Assembly (NCBI GenBank): GCA_001244265.2
Contig: CDLV01000005.1
Coordinates: 806,001 to 870,000, forward strand
Direction of reading: 5' to 3'
Origin: Microbotryum violaceum
Taxonomy: Eukaryota
DNA length: 64,000 nucleotides
Shown: in pieces, positions 30,778 through 48,284 of the stretch
Numbering within the stretch: position 1 is the first letter of the stretch
How the letters are laid out: each line of letters opens with the position of its first letter
Made by a program: the position numbers and the translations under genes
The notes under the pieces: generated by a model
Told to the model about the DNA's origin: nothing
What the model saw: the letters and a program-made list of their open reading frames with translations, nothing else
Databases searched by the model: none

Positions 30778-30835
30778 GAGCAGCTACGAAGAACGACAAG
30801 AGGAACGAGCAGCTACGAAGAACGAGAAGAGGAAC
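30778..30835. repeat. 29-bp tandem duplication
   Basis: gagcagctacgaagaacga(c/g)aagaggaac x2. Confidence 0.85.
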
Positions 30836-30861
30836 GAAACTTTGGAACTGAAAAAAAAAAA

Positions 30862-30943
30862 AGCCCCGATTCGGATTTGAACCGAAGACCTGACGATGTC
30901 CATCACTGGAGTCGCCCGCGATAGACCACTACGCTACCAGGGC
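30862..30943 (-). tRNA. tRNA-Trp(CCA) with ~8-nt intron
   Basis: GCCCTGG/TCGGGGC acceptor stem, TAGCGTAGTGG A box, GGCGA-CTCCAG-[TGATGGAC]-A-TCGTC anticodon arm, GGTTCAAATCC B box, followed by a long T-run terminator. Confidence 0.9.
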
Positions 30944-30997
30944 CCGTTGAAAGACTCGTCCCCAATTGTTAATATATTGCGCAAAGCACTCTTTTTA

Positions 30998-32640
30998 AGG
31001 GTCCTTCAACTTCTTTGGGCTCACCCGACCGTTCACTATTCGAAAGCTTCGTCGGCTTGTGAACGTGGTTCGGTTCCCAGGGAGGGAGGATCGTGTCAAG
31101 CGTTTCCGTGATGGGACTTCTCAGAGCGATAGGAAGCGCTTCTGGAGATGGCTTCATGACCGGTTTGCGTCTGCTGTGGAGCAGGACACCCACTGGCGGC
31201 TCATGTACGACGTGACGCCGACGCGCAAGAGGCAGCATACTCAGGGTCATGCCTCTTCGCCGACGTGTCTGTTCTGCGGCAACGATGCAGCGGTCATCGA
31301 GACGGTGTCGCACTACTTCTTCGAGTGCGCGTACTCGACCAGCTTCTGGGGTGGGGTGCTTCGCATTCTGTTCGACAAGCTGGGCATCGAGGATACCGAC
31401 GTCGATCCGTCGACGTTCACTCCGGAGCAGCTGACTATGGGGCTCCCCTTTTGCGGGGTCGTGGGAGAACGACCTCGAGATGGATGTGGGTTCGGCTGGC
31501 CTGCGCGATCGGCTTCCAGCGGCTGCACCTGCTCCGCTGGCGCGTTCATCAGCGGTTCGAGCTGGACAAGGTCGTGGCCCCTCCCTCGCTCCCCAGTGCA
31601 CTCAGAGCGTTCGAGCGAGATTTTCTCTCTCGAGCGGGTTTTGTGCCTGGGGCTCGAGATTGGGAGGTGTGATGACCGAGTTAAGTCGTTCCTTCCCATT
31701 TTCTTCCCCTCCTTTCCTCCCTTCTTTTTCGGAGGTCGACTCCTCTTTTAGAAGCTGACTGTCTTGGAACTTGTTGCGCAGTGGAAGGCTGCGCACCTCT
31801 CCCTCTCTCTCTCTACTTTGCGCAGTAGCGGTTTTTTGTTCTTGGATGGATCGGCAAGCCAGGTCGATTGTCTTTGCGTTGGAGGCTTTGTGAAGTTTTT
31901 TCCCTCTCCTTTCCCCCCTTTTTCCCTTCCCTTCCTCTTCTCGTTCCTGTTGCTCGGTTGTTGACTACGCTTCAGCCACTTCTCCTTTTACTCCTAAGCC
32001 GTGTGTTGGATTCCGTTGAATGGTTCGTTCGTTCGCGTTGGTCAAGATCTACGGCATGGCTCGGGAAGGAAGGTCGCTCGTTTCTGGTCAATATCCTCGC
32101 GTCAAGGCGAGGCTCGTTTCATTGTACTGGATCGCTTTTCTCTCGGCCCCGACGGCTCAACAGCCAGCACTCGAGATTCAGCCAAGGGAGGACATCAGGC
32201 GCTGTCGGGGTGACGAGTAGCTGGGGCTTGGCTGCGGCCTGTTAGTCCCTGGGGACCTCTACCTCCGGCTTCGACCCCCTCCCTTGGCCCCTCGGGTGTG
32301 TTCCCCTCCTCTCTGTCTTAGTATTCCTGGTTCTCCGTATCCCCAGTTGTGACTTTCTGTATACTCTCCCCCTTCTTTCTCTAGGCTCTCTTGCCTGGTT
32401 TTCGAGTATCTTTGCTCCCGCTCTTGGGACGTGAAGCGGCAGCAGTACTCACCGCCCGTTGGAGTCCGCGTCAGGTGCTCGGCGGGCTTTGATCTGCGCA
32501 GCGCTCTTTGCGCGCAGGGGTTTGACTTTCACCCAACTGCTTGCCGTCGTTGCTTTATAACCTCCTTTAGCTCTTTTTGTAGCGGTCCCAGCCAACCCGA
32601 AGGATTGCAATTTATGAGCCCCAGTCAAAAAAAAAAAAAA
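30998..32640 (+). mobile_element. 5'-truncated non-LTR retrotransposon, family A (ORF2 C-terminal zinc-knuckle plus ~1 kb 3'UTR plus A14)
   Basis: SPTCLFCGN...ETVSHYFFEC (CCHC, zf-RVT-like); ends ttatgagccccagtc-poly(A); near-identical to 46326-47558; 1-bp deletion in a C-run near 31446. Confidence 0.9.
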
Positions 32641-32661
32641 TCATACAAAAAAAAAGTTTTC

Positions 32662-33449
32662 CGCCGCAGGGAAGCGAGGCCCCTGCGGAAGGTATACCCC
32701 GCCTCTTGTCTCCAGCTGCGCGCCGGTGTTGACGGCCACCCGCCCGCGCTGCAGACCGAGGCGTGTCCAATGGACTGTCACATGCTCCATGACTTTCCCC
32801 GGAAATCTCTGGATTGTGTGTTTTTGTGCGAAGTAGGCCTGTTTCGCAGTTGCAGTCATTGAAATGGGGGTGATCTGGGGTCGTGCGGTCGCGAGGGGGG
32901 CAGACTTTGGTAACCGAAAAGGGGGTTGGACTCCGCGGTGGAGATCCAGCGCAGACGGGTACAAGGGGTATGTGATTGCTGCGGTCGCAGGGGGTTACAT
33001 TCCCCCTTTTGGACCACGTGAATCATTCGGATTGAGCGGGATGTTTGTGCCATCGGAGGCCTTGTTCGACGCGTCTCAAAGAATTAAGGGCCTCAAGGAG
33101 TATGGCAGTCTCAGGGGGGTCTGAAGTCAAAAGATCGAAGAAGGTTCAACTGTACAACTATGATCGGATTCACCTGTACAACACATGTACCACCACCAAC
33201 ATTTCTTCCATCGTTTCCAGATTCCCCGTGTATTATCTTCAATCTTCCTTTCATTCGTCTCTGGGAGGGAGCAACCGTGGGTGGGGGGGACTTGAACTCG
33301 GATGTATCGGGTTGGTCTGTTCTGCTAGTTACAACGCATCGAGCGGCGGTTGTGGTCATCAACGTGCATACTGGGCAACATCACCTTTAGTTCCGTAGGG
33401 GGGTTTCTCGTCTTGCAAATTAGCGATGAGTTTCATACAAAAAAAAAAA
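32662..33449 (+). mobile_element. 3' fragment of poly(A)-tailed retroelement, family B
   Basis: Highly similar to 37459-38249; ends gatgagtttcatac-A11; flanked by GTTTTC on both sides. Confidence 0.8.
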
Positions 33450-33455
33450 GTTTTC

Positions 33456-36400
33456 GCGGCCGGTCCACGCCAAGCTCGCGGCGCGGAACTCGGACTCCAA
33501 GATCACAGCACTGCGCTTGAGCAACGGAGAGCTAACGCATGACATTGATGTCGCTCTTGACCACACGCAGGCGCATTTCCAGCGCCTCTACCACATCGAG
33601 CCTCGTGACCCGGACCGCGTCGACCGACTTCGGGACGAATTCCTCGCGCCGATCAGGGCGGCGCGGACTTGCGACGACCCGCGCTCGGATCCTCTCTTTC
33701 TGCGCCGACTCTCGGAATCACAGAACGACTTACTCCAGCGACCAATCACCGAGGACGAGGTCGTGGCCGCGATCGGGACGACGCACCCGGGGCGATCGCC
33801 GGGACCGTCGGGCGTGCCCTACGAACTCTACCAGACCGCACCCAAGGCGTGGGCCAAGGTGCTGACCAAGGCCTACAACGTGATGATAGAGCGAGGCTCA
33901 CTCTCTCCCAAGCAGGGCCAAGGACTCGTGCGCCTCATCTTCAAGCGACACAAGAAGAATGCTGATCGCGCCGAACTTTCGGCGTACCGGCCGATCACCC
34001 TGCGCGAGTGCGATTACAAGATCTTTACCAAGGTCTATGTCGCCCGTTTGAACCAAATTCTACCGGATCTCCTCCCGCCGCAGCAGCACGGATTCGTCAA
34101 GGACCGCCGATTGGCTGACGCTGCACTACACCTTCGTCTCCTGATCGAGGAAGTTGGCGCGCGCAGGACCGAGTTCCCCGCGGCCGCACTCTTATCTCTT
34201 GACCAATCGTCCGCCTACGACCTCGTCGAGCATGACTGGATCTTTGCCATCTTTGACACTCTGGGCGCTCCTGCCACCTTTCTTCGCGTGCTGAGGATGC
34301 TCTACTCGGGTGACTCGACCTCGGCCCGCTACATCATCAATGGGTTCTTGACGGCGCCGGTACGACTGACGTGTGGGCTCGGCCAAGGGGACCCGGCGTC
34401 GTCGTCGGTCTGGGACATCGTGTTTCAGCCGTTTCTGGATGCTCTACACCGTCGAAACATCGCGCTGAATCTCTCCATACCTGCACTTCATCCGTACCCA
34501 CAGAGCCGCGCCATTACATCGCTTGCTTTTGCCGATGACGTTGTCGTCGCCGTCGCGGGCTTGGGGTCACTCAACTTGCTCGATGACCTGGCGCTCGACT
34601 GGAGGCATGCAACGAATGGCCGGCTCAACACGGACAAGACGGTCGTCCTACCGATCGGACGCCGCTGGGACCCGGGGCAACGCCCGCTCGTCGTCAAGGC
34701 CGCAGGCGAGTCGCTCGAGTGGATCGGCCTCCCCTTCGACCCGAGCGGCGACACCGAACTCGCCTACGCGAATCTCATCGAACGCCTCGAGGCGACGCTG
34801 GAAGGGGTTCAGCATCGCTGGCTCACACACCACACCCGTGCCTTTTACGTCAATCGGTACGCCATCCCCAAGATCCTGCACTTCCTTGCAGGCGACATCC
34901 CGCCGCCCGAAGTCGTCAAGAAGCTCGATGACATGCTCGTCGATTTCGTCCGTGGGGGCAAGGGCAGGACCAGCTACGGCAGAGATATCGTGTTCACAGC
35001 CAAGCTCAAGGGGGGACTCGGGGTGATCAGGATGCAGGACGTCGTGGACGCGGTTGCGGCACGGATCTGGGACGTTCTTCTCGGCGGTTCGGGCGCGATC
35101 TGGCAAGGACTTGCGCGCGCGGCACTCCAGCGAGCTCAGTCCGACCTCGACCTGGCCACCGATCTCTGGCCACATCCATCCACTCCCATCCCCAGCGACC
35201 TCCATCCCCGATGGCGAGCAGCTTTGGGGGTTCCGAAACAGCAAGACGCGCAGGTCAACCCGAGGACCTTGACCACCGCGAACCTGCTCGCGCTTCCCAC
35301 CTTGCTCGGCAGCCTCCACACCCCCATCAGAGGGAGACAGACCATCGACGCGGTTCATATACCTGACTACCTTCGTCTCCAGGGCTACCCGAAGGTGGCG
35401 GATCTTTACCGGCGCGAGTTGTATGCGGGTGGGGGTTTCACCTTTGGACGCCGCCGGCGGATGTGCTCGGCGACAACAGCGAGTACGATCGACGCGGGCT
35501 CCCGCAGCGATTGGCAATCGCGGCCTGGTACCGGTTCACTGTCGATCGACACAAGAACACGCCCTTGGCGGTGGCGGTGGCGGCAGGACGGCTCAACGTG
35601 CCTCCCCGGATCGGCACCAGCGCACCACTCGAGGCGATTCTCCCCAAGCCCGTGGCCCGCTTCGCAATGGAGCAGCGCCTTCCGGACCCGGTGCTTCCAC
35701 AGCAGGCGAGCCAGTACAAGCTGCTGAACATGGCTCGACCGTACACCATCCGTCGCATCCGCCGGGTCCTGAACGCGAAGGCCTTTACCAACACGCTCGG
35801 GCTCAAGGGACCACCGCAGCCGGACGACCTCAGGAGCTTTTGGAAGGCGGTCAACTCGAAGGCACTGACGGCGAGGGAGAGGGAAGTTTGGTTCAAGCTG
35901 ATTCTCCGCTTCACCCCGACGCGTAAGCTGCAACACCAACAGAATCACGACACTTCTCCCGCGTGCCTCGTCTGCGAAGCGCCGGTGGACGACACCGACC
36001 ACTACTTTTTCGACTGCGTTGACTCTGGGAACGTTTGGATAGCGGCAAGGAGCGTGCTCTGCGACGCACTGGGGCTCGACACGATCGACAACACGCATTA
36101 CACGGCTGTTCAACGCATGTTCGGACTTCCGAAGCTCAAGGCCAGTCTACGCGATCAAGAAGGAGCGGGGAGGACGATCGAAATATTCACCGGGCTGGTC
36201 TTGGAGATGATCAGCAGCGGGAGGTGGGGGATGCAAAAGTGGGGGACGAGGATGGAGGGTGTTGGGAGGAGGAGGATCATCTTGGAGGAGAGGTTGAAGC
36301 TGAGGGCGGGAGGAGCTTGGGGGAGGAGAGGGCAGTAGAGGCTGGGTTCGACTTTCCCCCCACCACCACCACACACACACACCAAATTCTCGTGACATCA

Positions 36401-36997
36401 TTTTCTCCTACTGTACACTAAATAGATCGCTTTCATCTTTCATTTGTTACAGGTTCACCGTTGCGGATCATGGACCATCTCGCGATTTGGCGTCGACTCG
36501 GTGTGGCTCGCGCTCTTCGGCTTCGGGGTTCTGAGTCAAGGGAGGGATCAGCGGACACAGGCAGAAAGTCGGCTTTGAGGGGCCAGGGACTGCCGATGGG
36601 GGAGGTTTTGAGGGACCTTCACCGCGTCTTGTTGTGACTGAGCAGAGACTTGGAGCGTCGAGGGTCGTGGTGGTTGCGCAGTCGTGCTCTTGTCTTCGTC
36701 TCGACCGAGTGGGAAGTGGCTGTGGGGTGGGCCTTCTGTCGTTAGTACATTTCTTTTCTTTCTTTTTCTCTTCATCTCTCTTTCTCTCTCTCATTAGTCT
36801 CCGGGGGGGAGCAACCGCTTGGCTAGGGCATTTGAATCCGAATCTCGGATTGGTGGACTTGGCTCGTTTCTCGCACTTTTGCGGGCGGTTTGTGTTATCA
36901 TCGTAGTCTTCCATCTAGTTTTTCCGTAGGCCAAAACAGGGGGAACAGGAACTGGGGGCAATATGATGAACGTTTTCTACAAAAAAAAAAAAAAAAA
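33456..36997 (+). mobile_element. 5'-truncated L1/Tx1-clade LINE, family C (RT plus C-terminal CCHC, 3'UTR, A17)
   Basis: [59 protein letters not shown]; endonuclease and ORF1 missing; flanked by GTTTTC. Confidence 0.93.
33517..36338 (+). CDS. LINE ORF2 reverse transcriptase (partial; one -1 frameshift at ~35433)
   Basis: ORF 33517-35727 (RT) continues in the -1 frame as ORF 35463-36338 (zinc-knuckle). Confidence 0.88.
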
Positions 36998-37003
36998 GTT
37001 TTC

Positions 37004-38249
37004 CTCCTCATAGGCTTCCGTACTCCCCAGGAGCCTCGGGTTCTTTGCGCCGGCGGGCATTGTCGCCCTTGGTTCGAGCTTCTGCCACATCACGATGACA
37101 CACAGCGAAAACGGATCCCCTTGGCCCTCTCCTGGACTATACCGTGAGTTTTCCACTCCTCTCAAGGGCCGGGTCTGTTTTCTCTTTCGGTCGAGCGACC
37201 CCGTGATCTCCTGTTCAAGGCCGGCACAAACTGCCTGCGTGGCTCGCCTCTCCTTGCTTTGCTGCTCGCTCGGAGTCGCGGCCCCGCGGCGGGTGACTCG
37301 GGTACCGAACCGCCATACACATCCACACTCGAGCGAGGTCCCACCCAATGACATCACCGTCGTGGGCCTCATGCTCCTTCTTTCCCCAGTATCTGCGGTG
37401 ATTGGGAACCACCTGCACGTACAAGGGGACTCGAGTGTGCGTTCCGAGATTGGGAGTACGCCGCAGGGAAGCGAGGCCCCTGCGGAAGGTATACCCCGCC
37501 CTTGTCTCCAGCCGCGCGCCGGTGTTGACGGCCACCCGCCCGCGCTGCACCCGACCGAGGCGTGTCCAATGGACTGTCACATGCTCCGTGACTTTCCCCG
37601 GAAATCTCTGGATTGTGTGTTTTTGTGCGAAGTAGGCCTGTTTCGCAGTTGCAGTCATTGGAATGGGGGTGATCTGGGGTCGTGCGGTCGCGAGGGGGGC
37701 CGACTTTGGTAACCGAAAAGGGGTTTGGAATCCGCGGTGGAGATCCAGCGCAGACGGGTACAAGGGGTATGTGATTGCTGCGGTCGCAGGGGGTTACATT
37801 CCCCCTTTGGACCACGTGAATCATTTGGATTGAGCGGGATGTTTGTGCCATCGGAGGCCTTGTTCGACGCGTCTCAAAGAATTAAGGGGCTTCAAGGAGT
37901 ATGGCGGTCTCAGGGGGGGGCTGAAGTCAAAAGATCGAAGAAGGTTCAACTGTACGACTATAATCGGATTCGCCTGTACAACACATGTACCATCACCAAC
38001 GACTCATCCATCTTTTCCAGATTCCTTGTGTATAATCTTCAACCTTCCTTTCATTCGTCTCTGGGAGGGAGCAACCGTGGGTGGGGGGGACTTGAACTCG
38101 GATGTATCGGGTTGGTCTGTTCTGCTAGTTACAACGCATCAAGCGGCGGTTGTGGTCATCATCGTGCATGCTGGGTAGCATCTCCTTTAGTTCCGTAGGG
38201 GGTTTTCTCGTCTTGCAAATTAGCGATGAGTTTCATACAAAAAAAAAAA
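37004..38249 (+). mobile_element. Longer 3' fragment of family B retroelement
   Basis: Extends 32662-33449 by ~450 bp at the 5' end; same 3' end plus A11; no convincing ORF. Confidence 0.8.
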
Positions 38250-38476
38250 GAGTTTGCTCCCGCTCTTGGGACGTGAAGCGGCAGCAGTACTCACCGCCCG
38301 TTGGAGTCCGCGTTAGGTGCTCGGCGGGCTTTGATCTGCGCAGCGCTCTTTGCGCGCAGGGGTTTGACTTTCACCCAACTGCTTGCCGTCGTTGCTTTAT
38401 AACCTCCTTTAGCTCTTTTTGTAGCGGTCCCAGCCAACCCGAAGGATTGCAATTTATGAGCCCCAGTCAAAAAAAA
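38250..38476 (+). mobile_element. Short 3' fragment of family A LINE
   Basis: Matches ~32404-32634; ends ccccagtc-A8. Confidence 0.88.
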
Positions 38477-38500
38477 TAAGAAAATAAAAATAAAAATAAT

Positions 38501-38913
38501 CACACCATCACACTTCATCTTCTGACAAAACACTGTATACTAAATACCTTGCTTTCATCTTTCATCTCTTACAGGTCTGCTTTCGTTGCTCATGGACCGG
38601 CTCGCGATTTGGGATTGACTCGACGGTGCAGTGGCTCGCGCTCTTTGGTTTCGGGGTTCTGAGTCAAGGGAGGGATCAGCAGACACTGGCAGAAAGTCGG
38701 CTTTGAGGGGCCAGGGACTGCTGAGGTGGAGGTTTTGAGTGGCCTCCACCGCGTCTTGCTGTGACCGAGCGTAGACTTGGGGCTTCGTGAGTCAGGGTAG
38801 TTGCGCAGTCGCTCTCCTGTCTTTGTCTCGACTGAGTTGGGAAGTGGGTGCGGGGTGGGCCTCTTGTCGTTAGTACTAGTTGTTTTCCTTTCTCTCTCTC
38901 TGTCCTTCTCTCT
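38501..38913 (+). mobile_element. Diverged family C 3'UTR fragment lacking its 3' end
   Basis: Colinear with ~36375-36790 (e.g. ttcggggttctgagtcaagggagggatcagc, gaaagtcggctttgaggggccagggactgc). Confidence 0.8.
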
Positions 38914-39029
38914 GCGAGGCCGGCGGAAGCTTGATCGGAGCGTTCCCCTCATCCCGCTGCAACTTGACTCATTTTACCGCTATGTACATACACGTCGCGC
39001 GAGCGGTCCAGGGAGTCGACCCTGCCCAC

Positions 39030-39280
39030 TAGGGCTGGGTCACTTAATTGTTTTGGCCCCGTCACTAATAGGTGACAAAAGTCGGACCCTCGGTCACTTA
39101 TTATCGTCACCAGCACTCAAATGCTGTCACTAATGTCACTAAGTCCAATATTTGGTCACTAATGTAACTGAATGGAAACGATGTACATTGCACTGTCGGA
39201 GGCAAGCTCTAGCACTCAACATAACAAAGTGCACTAAAGAGACTAGTATCATTACATCGTCATTTCGTCGTCAGGTGACC
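39030..39280. repeat. AT-rich cluster of GTCACT/GTGAC motifs after TAGGGCTG; possible hAT-type DNA transposon end
   Basis: About 9 GTCAC/GTGAC copies within 250 bp starting at tagggctgggtcac; partner TIR not found. Confidence 0.45.
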
Positions 39281-39788
39281 AAAGATCCATCGCTTCGTTT
39301 TCCTCGTCGTCCAGCACCACTGCCGGGAGCGGAAGGTTGTTAGTTCGCTCCTCCGTTTATTTTTATTCTATTTGGCAGATTTTAATACCTAGAAACCTTC
39401 GGAAAAGTCGGAGGAAATGCTCTTACGCACACTGCCTGCTTGGTCAGGATCTACCTAGATATTTCTCGTGCCTGTGACCCGTCGTAACGCCTTGCCTTAC
39501 AGCGGAGTCGGCGGACGGCCACGGATCGTCTAGACAGGCACAATGAGGAGCAGCTAATGCAGGCGGGCTTCTATTCCTCCGACCCATCTTCAATTCCTCC
39601 TCGAGGTGTACCAACAGCGAGAAAATTATGTGATCTTGACCCTCGAGCAGCTTCTTCATCTCCCAGCTCTGAGTCGCTTATTTGTGTCTGTGCTTCATCA
39701 ATTGGGTGGAATAAACAAAATAACGACATGAAAATAAAATGAACGAAATAAGGCACAATCCGTCATCCATCAAAAATCAAAAGCATCG

Positions 39789-44226: not shown

Positions 44227-45507
44227 CCGGGAAAGGGGCTAGTTCGTTGCGTGTCTGAGCGTGTTTGGGGCCGCCAAGTCCAGTCAGTCGGCCGGTCCGT
44301 CGCACGCGTTCCTGCCAGAAGTCACAACTGGCAGTAGCAACAGCGGTGCTTTGAGCTTCATCAGTCAATATCCGTTTCGGGTGATATATAGGACTTGGGC
44401 TTCCCTTCGACGTACCTCTTTTGACGCGGCGTGGTCCGGTCTAAAGCGCACTGTTGATCGGTCAATCAACAATCGCCCAACTTCGGTGATCAAGGCGATT
44501 GAGGGTTCGATACACTGATGCACTGAGAGTATTAGGCGGCCAAGAAAGGGAGCGTATTGCTAAAGAAGTTGCTAACAGGTCGAAGGGTTCGGAGTTGAAG
44601 GTAATGATCGCCGGCTGAGCTCCAATGAGCTCATTCAAGCGCGCTGGCCGGCGAAAGCGACGAAATGCGGGAGGTCCGAGCGCTGATAACAGCCTCAGCA
44701 GGCTCTAGCCTGTGCCCCTGCACCGACCCCGGCCTCTTGAATCACCTGAGCCTGATGCGAGCCACGAGCTAAGCATGTCTACGCAGTCCCAATTTTCAAC
44801 CAAGTCGAATATCTAGGTAACTGAATCTTATTGTCGAGGTATGTAAGAAGTCAGCGGACGAGCGGTACTATCACTCAGCAGTGGCGTCGAGCTTCTTTCG
44901 GATCGTTTTCAACACTGCAGAGACGAGCACATCTTCTCAATAAGATTCCAGCTCCGTGGAGTGCGAGAGCGACTTACCCCCTTCGTTGAAGCCAGTCGGA
45001 TCGAAGGTGTAGACCCCTTTGAGCCCTTGCGACAAGGCGTATTTCTGTCAGGAGGGGAAGAGATTAGCTCAGTTCACAACTTAACGCGACTAGCAAGCTC
45101 GGACTCACGGTCTTCTCACCCGCAGAAGACGCATCATCATAGTTGATCATCACTTTGGTCTTCAAGTTGAACAGGAAAGGGGTGGCGGAGCAAGCATCGA
45201 CATGACGCGTCCATCCCCTCGAGCCGACCCGATGCCGTTCAAAGACAGGAGCTATGGCATGAAAAATCGTCCGGATTCCGATTGAGTGGAGCGCATGAAT
45301 GAAGGAAGCAAAGCTCTTATAAACGCTCCATACTCACACGACATAATTACACATCCCGGTGTACGAAGCCGTTCTCACACCACAGACATCGACGACGGTA
45401 TTATTCGCCTCCGTCCTGTTCTTCGTGAACACATTACGCATGTCCTAGCAGATTTGCGAATGTTGGAATCAGCGATGATCCCGAAATGATCAACAAAAGA
45501 AGAAGAA

Positions 45508-45579
45508 CGGCTGGACCAGGAGTCGAACCTGGGTCGCTTCCATTAATCGGAAAAGCTTTGACCACTAAGCTATCCGGCC
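45508..45579 (-). tRNA. tRNA-like gene (72 nt) with atypical anticodon loop GA-TTA-AT, nested in a chitinase intron
   Basis: GGCCGGA/TCCAGCC acceptor (one mismatch), GCTT/AAGC D stem with AGTGG, TTTCC/GGAAG anticodon stem, CCAGG-TTCGACT-CCTGG T arm, TTTT ~10 nt downstream. Confidence 0.75.
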
Positions 45580-45650
45580 CCTGATATCAGTGCAAGGTCT
45601 ACTAACACCTTCAACAACGAAGTGAACCCCTTGATCTTCTGAGACTTGAG

Positions 45651-45771
45651 GGTTTGACTTTCACCCAACTGCTTGCTGTCGTTGCTTTATAACCTCCTTC
45701 AGCTCTTTTTGTAGCGGTCCCAGCCAACCCGAAGGATTGCAATTTATGAGCCCCAGTCAAAAAAAAAAAAA
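45651..45771 (+). mobile_element. Family A LINE 3' fragment plus A13
   Basis: Matches ~32519-32639. Confidence 0.88.
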
Positions 45772-46325
45772 GCGGAGCTCGTTCGTTTTATTGGATCGTT
45801 TTTTTGCCCGACTTCCGACGGCTCAACAGCCAGTACTCGAGACTCAGCCAAGGAGGGCCATCGGGCGTTGTCGGGGTGACGAGTAGCTGGGGCTTGGCTG
45901 CGGCCTGTTGGTCTTTGGGGACCTCTATCCCTGGCTTCGACCCCTTTCTTGGTCCCTCGGGTGTGTCCCCCCTCCTCCCCCTCCTTTCCCCTTGTTTTAG
46001 TATTTTCCTTTCTCGGTGTTCCCGTTTGTGACTTTCTGTATATTCTCTTCCTTCTTTCTCTAGGCGCTCTTGCCTGGTTTCGAGTATCTTCGCTCCCGCG
46101 CTTGGGACGTGAAGCGGCAGCAGTACTCACCGCCCATTGGAGTCCGCGTTAGGTGCTCGGCGGGCTTTGATCTGCGCAGCGCTCTTTGCGCGCAGGGGTT
46201 TGATTTTCACCCAGCTGCTTGTCGTCGTTGCTTTATTACCTCTTTTAGCTCTTTTTGTAGCGGTTCTAGCCAACCCGAAGGATTGTAATTTATGAGCCCA
46301 GTTAAACAAAAAAAAACGAAAAAAA
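45772..46325 (+). mobile_element. Diverged family A LINE 3' fragment with degenerate A tail
   Basis: Colinear with ~32110-32626 with many substitutions. Confidence 0.88.
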
Positions 46326-47558
46326 CGGAGCAGCTGACTATGGGGCTCCCCCTTTTGCGGGGTAGTGGGAGAACGACCTCGAAATGGATGTGGGTTCGGC
46401 TGGCTTGCGCGATCGGCTTCCAGCGGCTGCACCTGCTCCGCTGGCGCGTTCATCAGCGGTTCGAGCTGGACAAGGTCGTGGCCCCTCCCTCGATCCCCAG
46501 TGCACTCAGAGCGTTCGAGCGAGATTTTCTCTCTCGAGCGGGTTTTGTGCCTGGGGCTCGAGATTGGGAGGTGTGATGACCGAGTTAAGTCGTTCCTTCC
46601 CATTTTCCTCCCCTCCTTTCCTCCCTTCTTTTTCGGAGGTCGACTCCTCTTTTGTGAGCTGACTGTCTTGGAACTTGTTGCGCAGTGGAAGGCTGCGCAC
46701 CTCTCTCTCTCTCTCTCTCTCTACTTTGCGCAGTAGCGGTTTTCGTTCTTGGATCGATCGGCAAGCCAGTACGAGCGTCTTTGCGTTGGAGGCTTTGTGA
46801 AGTTTTGCCCTCTCCTTTCCCCCCTTTTTCCCTTCCCTTCCTCTTCTCGTTCCTGTTGCTCAGTTGTTGACTACGCTTCAGCCACTTCTCCTTTTACTCC
46901 TAAGCCGTGTGTTGGATTCCGTTGAATGGTTCGTTCGTTCGCGTTGGTCAAGATCTACGGCATGGCTCGGGAAGGAAGGTCGCTCGTTTCTGGTCAATAT
47001 CCTCGCGTCAAGGCGAGGCTCGTTTCGTTGTACTGGCTCGCTTTTATCTCGGCCCCGACGGCTCAACAGCCAGCACTCGAGATTCAGCCAAGGGAGGACA
47101 TCAGGCGCTGTCGGGGTGACGAGTAGCTGGGGCTTGGCTGCGGCCTGTTAGTCCCTGGGGACCTCTACCTCCGGCTTCAACCCCCTCCCCTGGCCCCTCG
47201 GGTGTGCTCCCCTCCTCTCTGTCTTAGTATTCCTGGTTCTCCGTATGCCCGTTTGTGACTTTCTGTATATTCTCTTCCTTCTTTCTCTAGGCGCTCTTGC
47301 CTGGTTTTCGAGTATCTTCGCTCCCGCTCTTGGGACGTGAAGCGGCAGCAGTACTCACCGCCCGTTTGAGTCCGCGTTAGGTGCTCGGCGGGTTTTGATC
47401 TGCGCAGCGCTCTTTGCGTGTAGGGGTTTGACTTTCACCCAACTGCTTGCCGTCGTTGCTTTATAACCTCCTTTAGCTCTTTTTGTAGCGTTCCCACCCA
47501 ACCCGAAGGATAGCAATTTATGAGCCCCAGTCAAAAAAAAAAAAAAAAAAAAAAAAAA
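46326..47558 (+). mobile_element. Family A LINE 3' fragment (end of ORF2 plus 3'UTR plus A26)
   Basis: Near-identical to 31423-32640; intact frame EQLTMGLPLLRG...ARDWEV*. Confidence 0.9.
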
Positions 47559-48284
47559 TGCGGAAAAATGCGGATGCGCCAAAAAAAAAAAAAAAGAGCC
47601 TGTACGAGTAGCCATAGGCAGGGATGCCGAGCATCATCTTGGAAACGGGGATCCCAGCCTTCTTGAACGTGTCGAACACCTCGACGACACTCGTCACGCT
47701 CTTGCATGTCCTCAGCCGGCAATTAGGCCCCGAGGTGGCTTCCCATGGTCCACCGACATCGTAATTCATCAAGTTAATAATGTCAAAGACTCTGCCGAAA
47801 TCGCTCATGTCCGCCAGGGAGCTGCCGTCGGGTCCTACCAATCCCGGGGTTGCAATGGAGGCGGTGATCAACTTTGACGGAAACCCTGTTCGGATCGAGC
47901 GACGATACCGTTGCTTCACAAAAAAATAATCCGGCTTCGGTCAGTAGCTCTTGCGCTGTAATTTGCTAAAATTCACGTGCTGGATTTGTCTTCTCTTTGT
48001 ATGTTTGCATGATGCAAAGAAGCCGTTCGGCATACTACGGCCAGCCAACCTTCGCCCAAACGCCACGTGACTCGAGGGCATTTTTGAGGCGAGTTCTGTG
48101 ACACTAACGTGGAATGGGAATGCAACGACGCGCTTCGGGCCTCAGCTAGCTGAATCTGCGTCTCATCTGAGACCATGGAAAGCACTCGCTATCGAGGTCC
48201 AGTATCACTGATAATTGACTTATTGGATATCATACAAGTGTCTATAGCTGCCTGCATAGGATACACAACAGATGATCCGCCGCT

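Follow-up and report, generated by a model that had tools for sequence, protein, structure and literature searches.

The 64-kb stretch of DNA analysed here (the window) contains, next to a tRNA-Trp gene, a stack of seven head-to-tail retroelement pieces, each truncated at the 5′ end, which belong to three families that we call A, B and C. This array (stack 1) records target-primed insertions that recurred at the same two staggered cuts, six bases from each other. The hexamer GTTTTC that recurs between the pieces is the first six retained bases of a copy of family A that was itself interrupted by an insertion, an origin newly recognised here. What brought successive elements back to the same bond is less certain, and guidance by the RNA polymerase III (Pol III) machinery at the tRNA gene is weighed below against insertion into pre-existing poly(A) tails. 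The units of stack 1 are as follows; LINE denotes a long interspersed nuclear element, ORF an open reading frame and UTR an untranslated region.

30998..38913, +: stack 1, seven head-to-tail 5′-truncated poly(A) retroelement pieces
30998..32640, +: A1, A-family LINE truncated at its 5′ end; it keeps the zf-RVT end of ORF2, a long 3′ UTR and a tail of A14
32641..32655, +: tiny B end, the final six B bases and A9 (direct reading)
32656..32661, +: GTTTTC copy 1, left duplication of B1
32662..33449, +: B1, 5′-truncated B copy with an A11 tail, 96.1% identical to B2 37459-38238
33450..33455, +: GTTTTC copy 2, right duplication of B1 and left duplication of C
33456..36997, +: C, 5′-truncated L1-like LINE with RVT_1, zf-RVT, 3′ UTR and an A17 tail, the endonuclease part absent
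36998..37003, +: GTTTTC copy 3, opening hexamer of A2, the A copy that B2 interrupts
37004..38249, +: B2, longer B copy with an A11 tail, sitting 6 bp inside A2
38250..38499, +: rest of A2, the final ~220 A-family bases, with TATC absent after GAG and an impure A-rich tail
38501..38913, +: C′, copy of a C-like subfamily truncated at both 5′ and 3′ ends, no tail
38914..39381, no strand: unrelated repeat closing stack 1 (from contig depth and contig starts at 39382-39385)

Direct reading, self-BLAST of the window and a listing of its A-runs place these units and the three hexamers where the original prediction, a note made from the letters alone, had put them. By self-BLAST, A1 (31423-32655) matches 46326-47558 in a second stack at 96%, B1 (32662-33450) matches B2 (37459-38250) at 95.3%, A2 (38253-38496) matches A1 (32411-32655) at 97%, and C′ (38532-38913) matches C (36410-36781) at 83%, or 87% in a separate comparison. 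Between A2 and the tail part of A1 there is a single difference in 216 positions (99.5% identity).

Target-site duplications and the origin of the hexamer

The plus strand of the window holds 13 A-runs of at least eight bases and the minus strand none. GTTTTC, which occurs 24 times on the plus strand of the 64 kb, directly follows three of the 13 (at 32656, 33450 and 36998), an outcome for which we roughly estimate a chance of ~1e-8. Other copies were sought in Logan contigs from four of 23 listed sequencing runs, spanning three organisms; 22 of the 23 runs contain half or more of the window's sampled words. This comparison masked the poly(A) junctions (32627-32655, 36971-37009 and two more), so that the hexamer junctions rest on the assembly.

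Both B1 and C have GTTTTC on either side, and in each case the hexamer is foreign to the element at the point of truncation. Other C copies read ...GAACGACTG before 33454 (loose contig ends in runs X17 and X7), and among related proteins that cross the truncation point of C, 12 of 16 share a pattern differing from the window, the other four giving no pattern match; solely the last TC of the hexamer belongs to the C family sequence. For B1 the comparison is with B2, which has different letters upstream of the base homologous to the start of B1. At another locus (run X1), five other letters separate a B tail from the A copy that comes after it, and the tail of a C-like element in a metagenome contig (L001) continues into unrelated letters and not into GTTTTC. 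Because the hexamer is absent after other B and C tails and foreign at both truncation points, GTTTTC is target DNA, and B1 and C, with a copy on either side, carry true 6-bp target-site duplications, produced by repeated insertion at one staggered cut. To this extent the proposal made in the original prediction stands.

The third hexamer has a different explanation. Family A contains the motif as part of its own sequence: A1 (32390-32419) and a3, a copy in the second stack, both read ...CTTGCCTG-GTTTTC-GAG-TATC-TTTGCTCCC..., and copy a2 is the same there with a hexamer one T shorter (GTTTC). A1 thus carries GTTTTC-GAG internally, at 32398-32406. Directly 3′ of the tail of B2, A2 starts GAG-TTTGCTCCC, while GTTTTC lies directly 5′ of B2. 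When B2 is excised in silico, nine contiguous A-family bases are restored (36998-37003 and 38250-38252), followed by a 4-base gap. Since GTTTTC and GAG together form an uninterrupted run of A-family sequence across B2, this unit lies inside an A copy; A2 begins at 36998 and is split by B2, and its first six retained bases are the source of the hexamer found at the other junctions. The third hexamer is no duplication made by B2: B2 cut into an A copy, whose 5′ end this hexamer forms, and the tail of B2 runs into GAG and not into GTTTTC. B2 therefore lacks the right-hand hexamer expected of a duplication, and to the left of A1 GTTTTC is likewise missing, if the internal copy at 32398 is disregarded. 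The same prediction had recognised that the hexamer might turn out to be family consensus at the truncation points, which would tell against duplications. That is the case for A only, not for C or B1, and the presence of the motif in family A explains where the hexamer came from without abolishing the duplication reading. We also considered, and rejected, the hexamer as a re-copied motif from the 3′ end of the elements, which would suit C (GTTTTC) and not B (GTTTC); an origin in the A copy accounts for it.

Element families and their relatives

The ORF of C contains RVT_1 (E 5e-21) and zf-RVT domains, and A1 retains the zf-RVT end of a related ORF (Pfam). The C ORF is 98% identical to a protein of Microbotryum silenes-dioicae and is matched by dozens of Microbotryum proteins, from which it follows that the window is DNA of an anther-smut fungus; the coding end of A1 is 97% identical to the C-terminus of protein P0035. 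Full-length relatives (~1300 aa) hold endonuclease (PF03372), reverse transcriptase (RT) and zinc-finger domains. By these matches A and C can be classed as L1-like LINEs of Microbotryum. Their features are those expected of LINEs, that is, elements without long terminal repeats (non-LTR) that are mobilised through target-primed reverse transcription: RT domains of LINE type, an endonuclease in relatives, pure tails of A9 to A26, and variable 5′ truncation, copies of one family beginning at differing points. The C ORF falls in generic RT clusters of the ESM Atlas and in nothing more specific.

Both the A1 and C copies are dead. C has a private frameshift near 35430, where family contigs show an extra G behind 35430 in all four runs, and A1 has privately lost one nucleotide near 31444, where an extra C behind 31444 is present in X17 (at about a third of the depth) and in X1 (throughout). 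The units of A, B and C belong to multicopy families, since summed contig depth over all of them is 10-50x the single-copy level, a depth that is not to be read as a copy number. For substitution ages and for a signature like that of repeat-induced point mutation there were too few sites to read; 4 of 30 differences between B1 and B2 are of the TCG/CGA type.

Family B is of another kind. Its 1246 bp gave no ORF match, no Pfam family and no blastx match among 57 proteins, so the description of all seven units as LINEs holds for A and C and is unproven for B. Sensitive blastn of B against C and A found solely a 30-base core, held in common with C. B and C do share short 3′ blocks and a similar long 3′ hairpin that ends ~10 bases before the tail (hairpin z scores of -2.45 for B, -1.75 for C and +0.59 for A), and their terminal motifs are alike (...GTTTTC-TAC-A17 in C and ...GTTTC-ATAC-A11 in B). 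Because B has no ORF and shares the 3′ hairpin of C, it is probably mobilised by a C-type enzyme, as a non-coding partner of C-type elements. The earlier suggestion that different families share one insertion specificity is weakened by the same finding, since two of them, with a common 3′ module, would probably depend on one enzyme.

A scan of metagenomes by alignment of 14 proteins yielded 214 confirmed loci, and among the 80 of these that were retained a single one, L001, is a close relative; the others (L002-L080) are LINEs of other organisms, 20-35% identical. L001 (2863-9022 of a public metagenome contig) is a full-length C-like LINE, 85-90% identical, with an acidic ORF1-like frame of 806 aa that has no Pfam family and an ORF2 with endonuclease. 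Compared with C in the window, L001 has an internal deletion of ~920 bp and the 3′ motif AGATTC where the window has GTTTTC. It adjoins a copia-like element, inside which the contig ends.

The tRNA-type genes and the second stack

LINE coding DNA was found in just two places in the window, stacks 1 and 2 (tblastn with the 57 proteins), and each lies upstream of a tRNA-type gene.

30861..30944, −: tRNA-Trp(CCA) gene with an 8-nt intron (ARAGORN with introns allowed)
30945..30997, no strand: unique spacer of 53 bp, from the tRNA 5′ end to the first LINE base
45508..45579, −: tRNA-like Pol III-type gene, anticodon TTA, multicopy (Rfam, 49 bits; ARAGORN)
45650..47595, +: stack 2, three A pieces (122, ~550 and 1233 bp) and a 22-base fragment with an A15 tail

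Neither Rfam at its gathering score nor ARAGORN run without introns detected the tRNA-Trp gene; a T12 run at 30851-30862, in the minus-strand reading, forms the terminator of this gene. Stack 1 starts 53 bp upstream of this gene, close to the ~55 bp originally predicted, in the opposite orientation and with the 5′ ends of the elements toward the gene. The junction between flank and A1 was confirmed in three of the four runs, from two organisms: in X1, X17 and X2, single-copy contigs run across the tRNA flank from 30500 and stop at 31000-31033. Another A copy diverges before 31000 (loose contig end). At the far side of the stack, C′ is cut at 38913, a point past which family copies go on in 4/4 runs; the joint 38913->36782, with six letters between, was likewise found in 4/4. 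Unique DNA resumes at 39382 in the contigs.

Two repeats lie at the edges of this locus. The one at 38914-39381, which cuts off C′, is multicopy and has reiterated GTCACTAAT-like motifs; it has no second copy within the 64-kb window, and run X7 has other letters before 39382. Just 3′ of the tRNA-Trp terminator, at 30778-30837, a 31-bp unit is repeated at an offset of 29 bp with 97% identity.

Stack 2 is oriented relative to the tRNA-like gene as stack 1 is to tRNA-Trp, and it begins 70 bp upstream of that gene. Both of the two LINE clusters in the window are thus found upstream of its two tRNA-type genes, in one relative orientation, with all 12 element pieces on the plus strand and both tRNA-type genes on the minus strand; a rough estimate of the chance of this arrangement is ~1e-6. 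The founding junctions of both stacks lie in targets that are not A-rich. Junctions within stack 2 show no extra bases and no GTTTTC. Private changes are fewest in its innermost piece (2 in ~110); the middle piece has ~12 and an impure tail, and the outer piece has 7 and a pure A26.

The tRNA-like gene has an A in place of U before the anticodon and one mismatch in the acceptor stem. Together with a 47-bp 3′ trailer (45461-45579) it is high-copy, and before 45461 there are 13-17 contigs with differing letters in three of the four runs; this segment may be a tRNA-derived repeat instead of a working tRNA gene. Gene and stack lie between pieces of a chitinase-like frame on the minus strand (45064-45333 and 47518-47940), which we take to be GH18 from recognised motifs and not from a family search. 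This frame is interrupted precisely where stack 2 has its last poly(A) tail, and a joined form (45160->47603) is present at single-copy depth in 3/4 runs and may be a paralogue or an allele. After the A26 tail of a3, the 22-base fragment and its A15 (47559-47595) resemble an aborted copy of a fourth family, comparable to the tiny B end of stack 1.

Positioning of the insertions

We consider it an evenly balanced proposition that a Pol III complex on the adjacent tRNA-Trp gene positions the integration machinery, leading to reuse of one phosphodiester bond, and at that strength we prefer Pol III-guided insertion to insertion into earlier poly(A) tails. Such positioning would explain both stacks together with their founding junctions in DNA that is not A-rich. 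At least six separate events of target-primed reverse transcription by related L1-like LINEs would have built stack 1, with the cut set 53 bp upstream of tRNA-Trp (59 bp for B2) and the 5′ end of each element toward the tRNA. The sequence itself shows that B2 struck A2, truncated so as to begin GTTTTC-GAG, at a point six bases in from the 5′ end of A2. C and B1 then each entered just to the left of the hexamer, with second-strand cleavage just to the right, so that GTTTTC was copied anew each time. A1 and the tiny B end could represent one event, in which the RT copied a B tail and six further bases and then switched to A RNA, the 5′ junction of A1 being formed without a duplication. Newcomers would enter on the tRNA-proximal side and displace older copies outward, giving an order of age in which C′ is the oldest, followed by A2, B2, C, B1 and finally A1 with the tiny B end.

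The expected order of ages is partly borne out. C′, the outermost copy, looks the most diverged from family contigs, with 10 of the 40 listed differences falling within its 413 bp, which fits the proposed order; the least-changed innermost piece of stack 2 also fits entry from the tRNA side. The original claim that the most diverged copy lies farthest from the tRNA is in this way weakly upheld by C′ and not by A2, with its one difference in 216.

Several observations weigh against Pol III guidance. Its support comes from two loci within one 64-kb window, and stack 2, at 70 bp, lies beyond the 44-54 bp range of the TRE5 elements of Dictyostelium. The middle piece of stack 2 looks older than the outer one, breaking the predicted order of ages, and A2 is so nearly identical to the tail part of A1 that substitutions do not show it to be older. 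The scheme requires one event without a duplication (A1) and one displaced by 6 bp (B2). The left part of A1 and A2 can alternatively be parsed as one old A copy, in which case the later events took place 1.45 kb from the tRNA and guidance by it would not explain the reuse of the site. Stack 2 sits within the remains of a chitinase-like ORF, a poor fit to a ‘safe haven’. Finally, a search of the 12.4-kb contig of L001 gave no tRNA, whether by ARAGORN (introns allowed or not) or by Rfam (E<=0.01); L001 thus counts against strict tRNA targeting, though its contig stops within the copia element.

The principal alternative, which we regard as rather unlikely but as the strongest competitor, is that elements inserted in, or beside, poly(A) tails already present, in the manner of Zorro3 or L1, with priming on the T-run opposite an existing tail and second-strand cleavage just after GTTTTC, so that the duplication comprises some A's and the hexamer. 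In its favour, all nine junctions of the two stacks join a tail to a 5′ end in one orientation. Of nine internal junctions, seven follow a tail directly or via the hexamer; the two founding 5′ junctions do not. The junctions of stack 2 and that between A1 and the tiny B end have no extra bases, as expected for an all-A duplication, in stack 2 the middle piece seems older than the outer one, and Zorro3 is described as targeting poly(A) tracts and showing template switching (PMC7175516, PMC3956500). In a variant of this explanation, the left part of A1 (30998-32403) and A2 belong to a single old A copy, whose 3′ UTR received at one and the same site four nested inserts: the A1 tail together with the tiny B end; B1; C; and B2. 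The new A copy would have joined seamlessly by homology, and GTTTTC would stand to the left of every insert. Since the A1 tail part has GTTTTC on its left, at 32398-32403, the variant needs no event without a duplication, and it suits the 99.5% identity of that part and A2. Priming on tails does not, however, account for two stacks that start upstream of Pol III-type genes, at 53 and 70 bp, in targets that are not A-rich. The cut made by B2 (GTTTTC/GAG) lies outside any T-run and the right hexamer is absent at B2, the second-strand cut must hit the same base three times, and C′ follows the tail of A2 yet looks older than A2.

Three further explanations seem to us very improbable. Serial template jumps from RNA to RNA could have laid down the whole array in a single integration, and the tiny B end and the 22-base fragment after the a3 tail do resemble aborted copies followed by a switch, of the kind reported for Zorro3 in yeast (PMC7175516). 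One event, however, gives one duplication, and three hexamers would need RNAs ending in a tail followed by GUUUUC, whereas elsewhere B and C tails run into other letters, and the hexamer can be traced to the A copy that B2 interrupted; at most, the pair of A1 and the tiny B end calls for a jump. The notion that the hexamer is intrinsic to the elements, whether because the families carry it in their 5′ consensus where the copies are truncated or because it is a transduced 3′ flank, is no more credible. A similar motif does stand just before the C and B tails (GTTTTC, GTTTC), and GTTTTC is part of the A family sequence, but the idea failed when tested for C and for B1, that is, at two of three junctions (no longer B copy was available for comparison with the 5′ end of B2), and neither the B2 tail nor that of L001 is followed by GTTTTC. 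An assembly chimera in this repeat-rich region deserves equally little credence. Short-read contigs do not span the units, and the internal junctions are unconfirmed by contigs; against this, removal of B2 restores A sequence and removal of B1 or C leaves one hexamer, a logic that no assembler would create, and the junction of flank and A1 recurs in three of four runs from two organisms.

Pol III-guided insertion is hinted at and not proven, and TRE5-like insertion in a basidiomycete is plausible, if thinly supported. In the literature searched we came across no description of tRNA-targeted LINEs from Microbotryum or from another fungus. Should the link with tRNA genes hold genome-wide, these would be the first LINEs outside the social amoebae shown to be aimed upstream of tRNA genes, a fungus whose genome is tractable would offer an example of convergent ‘safe-site’ targeting, and the stacks would be a natural, layered and ordered record of successive insertions. 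Should it fail, what is left is an ordinary, though unusually clean, set of nested LINE insertions that reused one site.

Autonomous LINEs with stringent 3′ recognition can share their 3′ ends with non-autonomous partners. B, whose 1246 bp contain no ORF, resembles such a partner through the 3′ hairpin and the terminal motif that it has in common with C; unlike a classical SINE (short interspersed nuclear element), it has no Pol III head that can be seen. Zorro3 of Candida albicans, a member of the L1 superfamily, integrates into A-tracts, and template switching has been seen (PMC7175516, PMC3956500). The elements described here are likewise fungal and L1-like, and most stack junctions follow a tail. 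They differ from Zorro3 in that the founding junctions lie outside A-tracts, two units have a 6-bp duplication that is not A-only, and the stacks are tied to Pol III genes.

The closest parallel is with TRE5 (TRE5-A/DRE) of Dictyostelium discoideum, which inserts ~44-54 bp upstream of tRNA genes in the opposite orientation and whose ORF2 combines an APE endonuclease, RT and a zinc finger; the same review tabulates non-LTR elements that target tRNA genes from dictyostelids only (PMC5911963). PMC5006619, too, reports TRE-like elements solely from dictyostelids, with none in the three other amoebozoans that were examined. The Microbotryum elements differ in belonging to another kingdom, in the 70 bp of the second locus and in the relative L001 with no tRNA nearby. 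The likeness to TRE5 in Microbotryum is known from sequence layout at two loci: stack 1 lies at 53 bp in the opposite orientation, truncated copies are clustered, and the full-length Microbotryum relatives have the same domain order of endonuclease, RT and zinc finger. Elements of the TRE5 type are further characterised by genomic copies most of which lie beside Pol III genes, by an ORF1 protein that binds TFIIIB and by targeting that depends on an intact B box. We tentatively suggest, while leaning somewhat against it ourselves, that families A and C, with their non-coding partner B, use Pol III-guided integration at a near-fixed base ~53-70 bp upstream of tRNA-type genes, head-to-head and with a fixed 6-bp stagger, and so represent an independent fungal origin of the TRE5 strategy.

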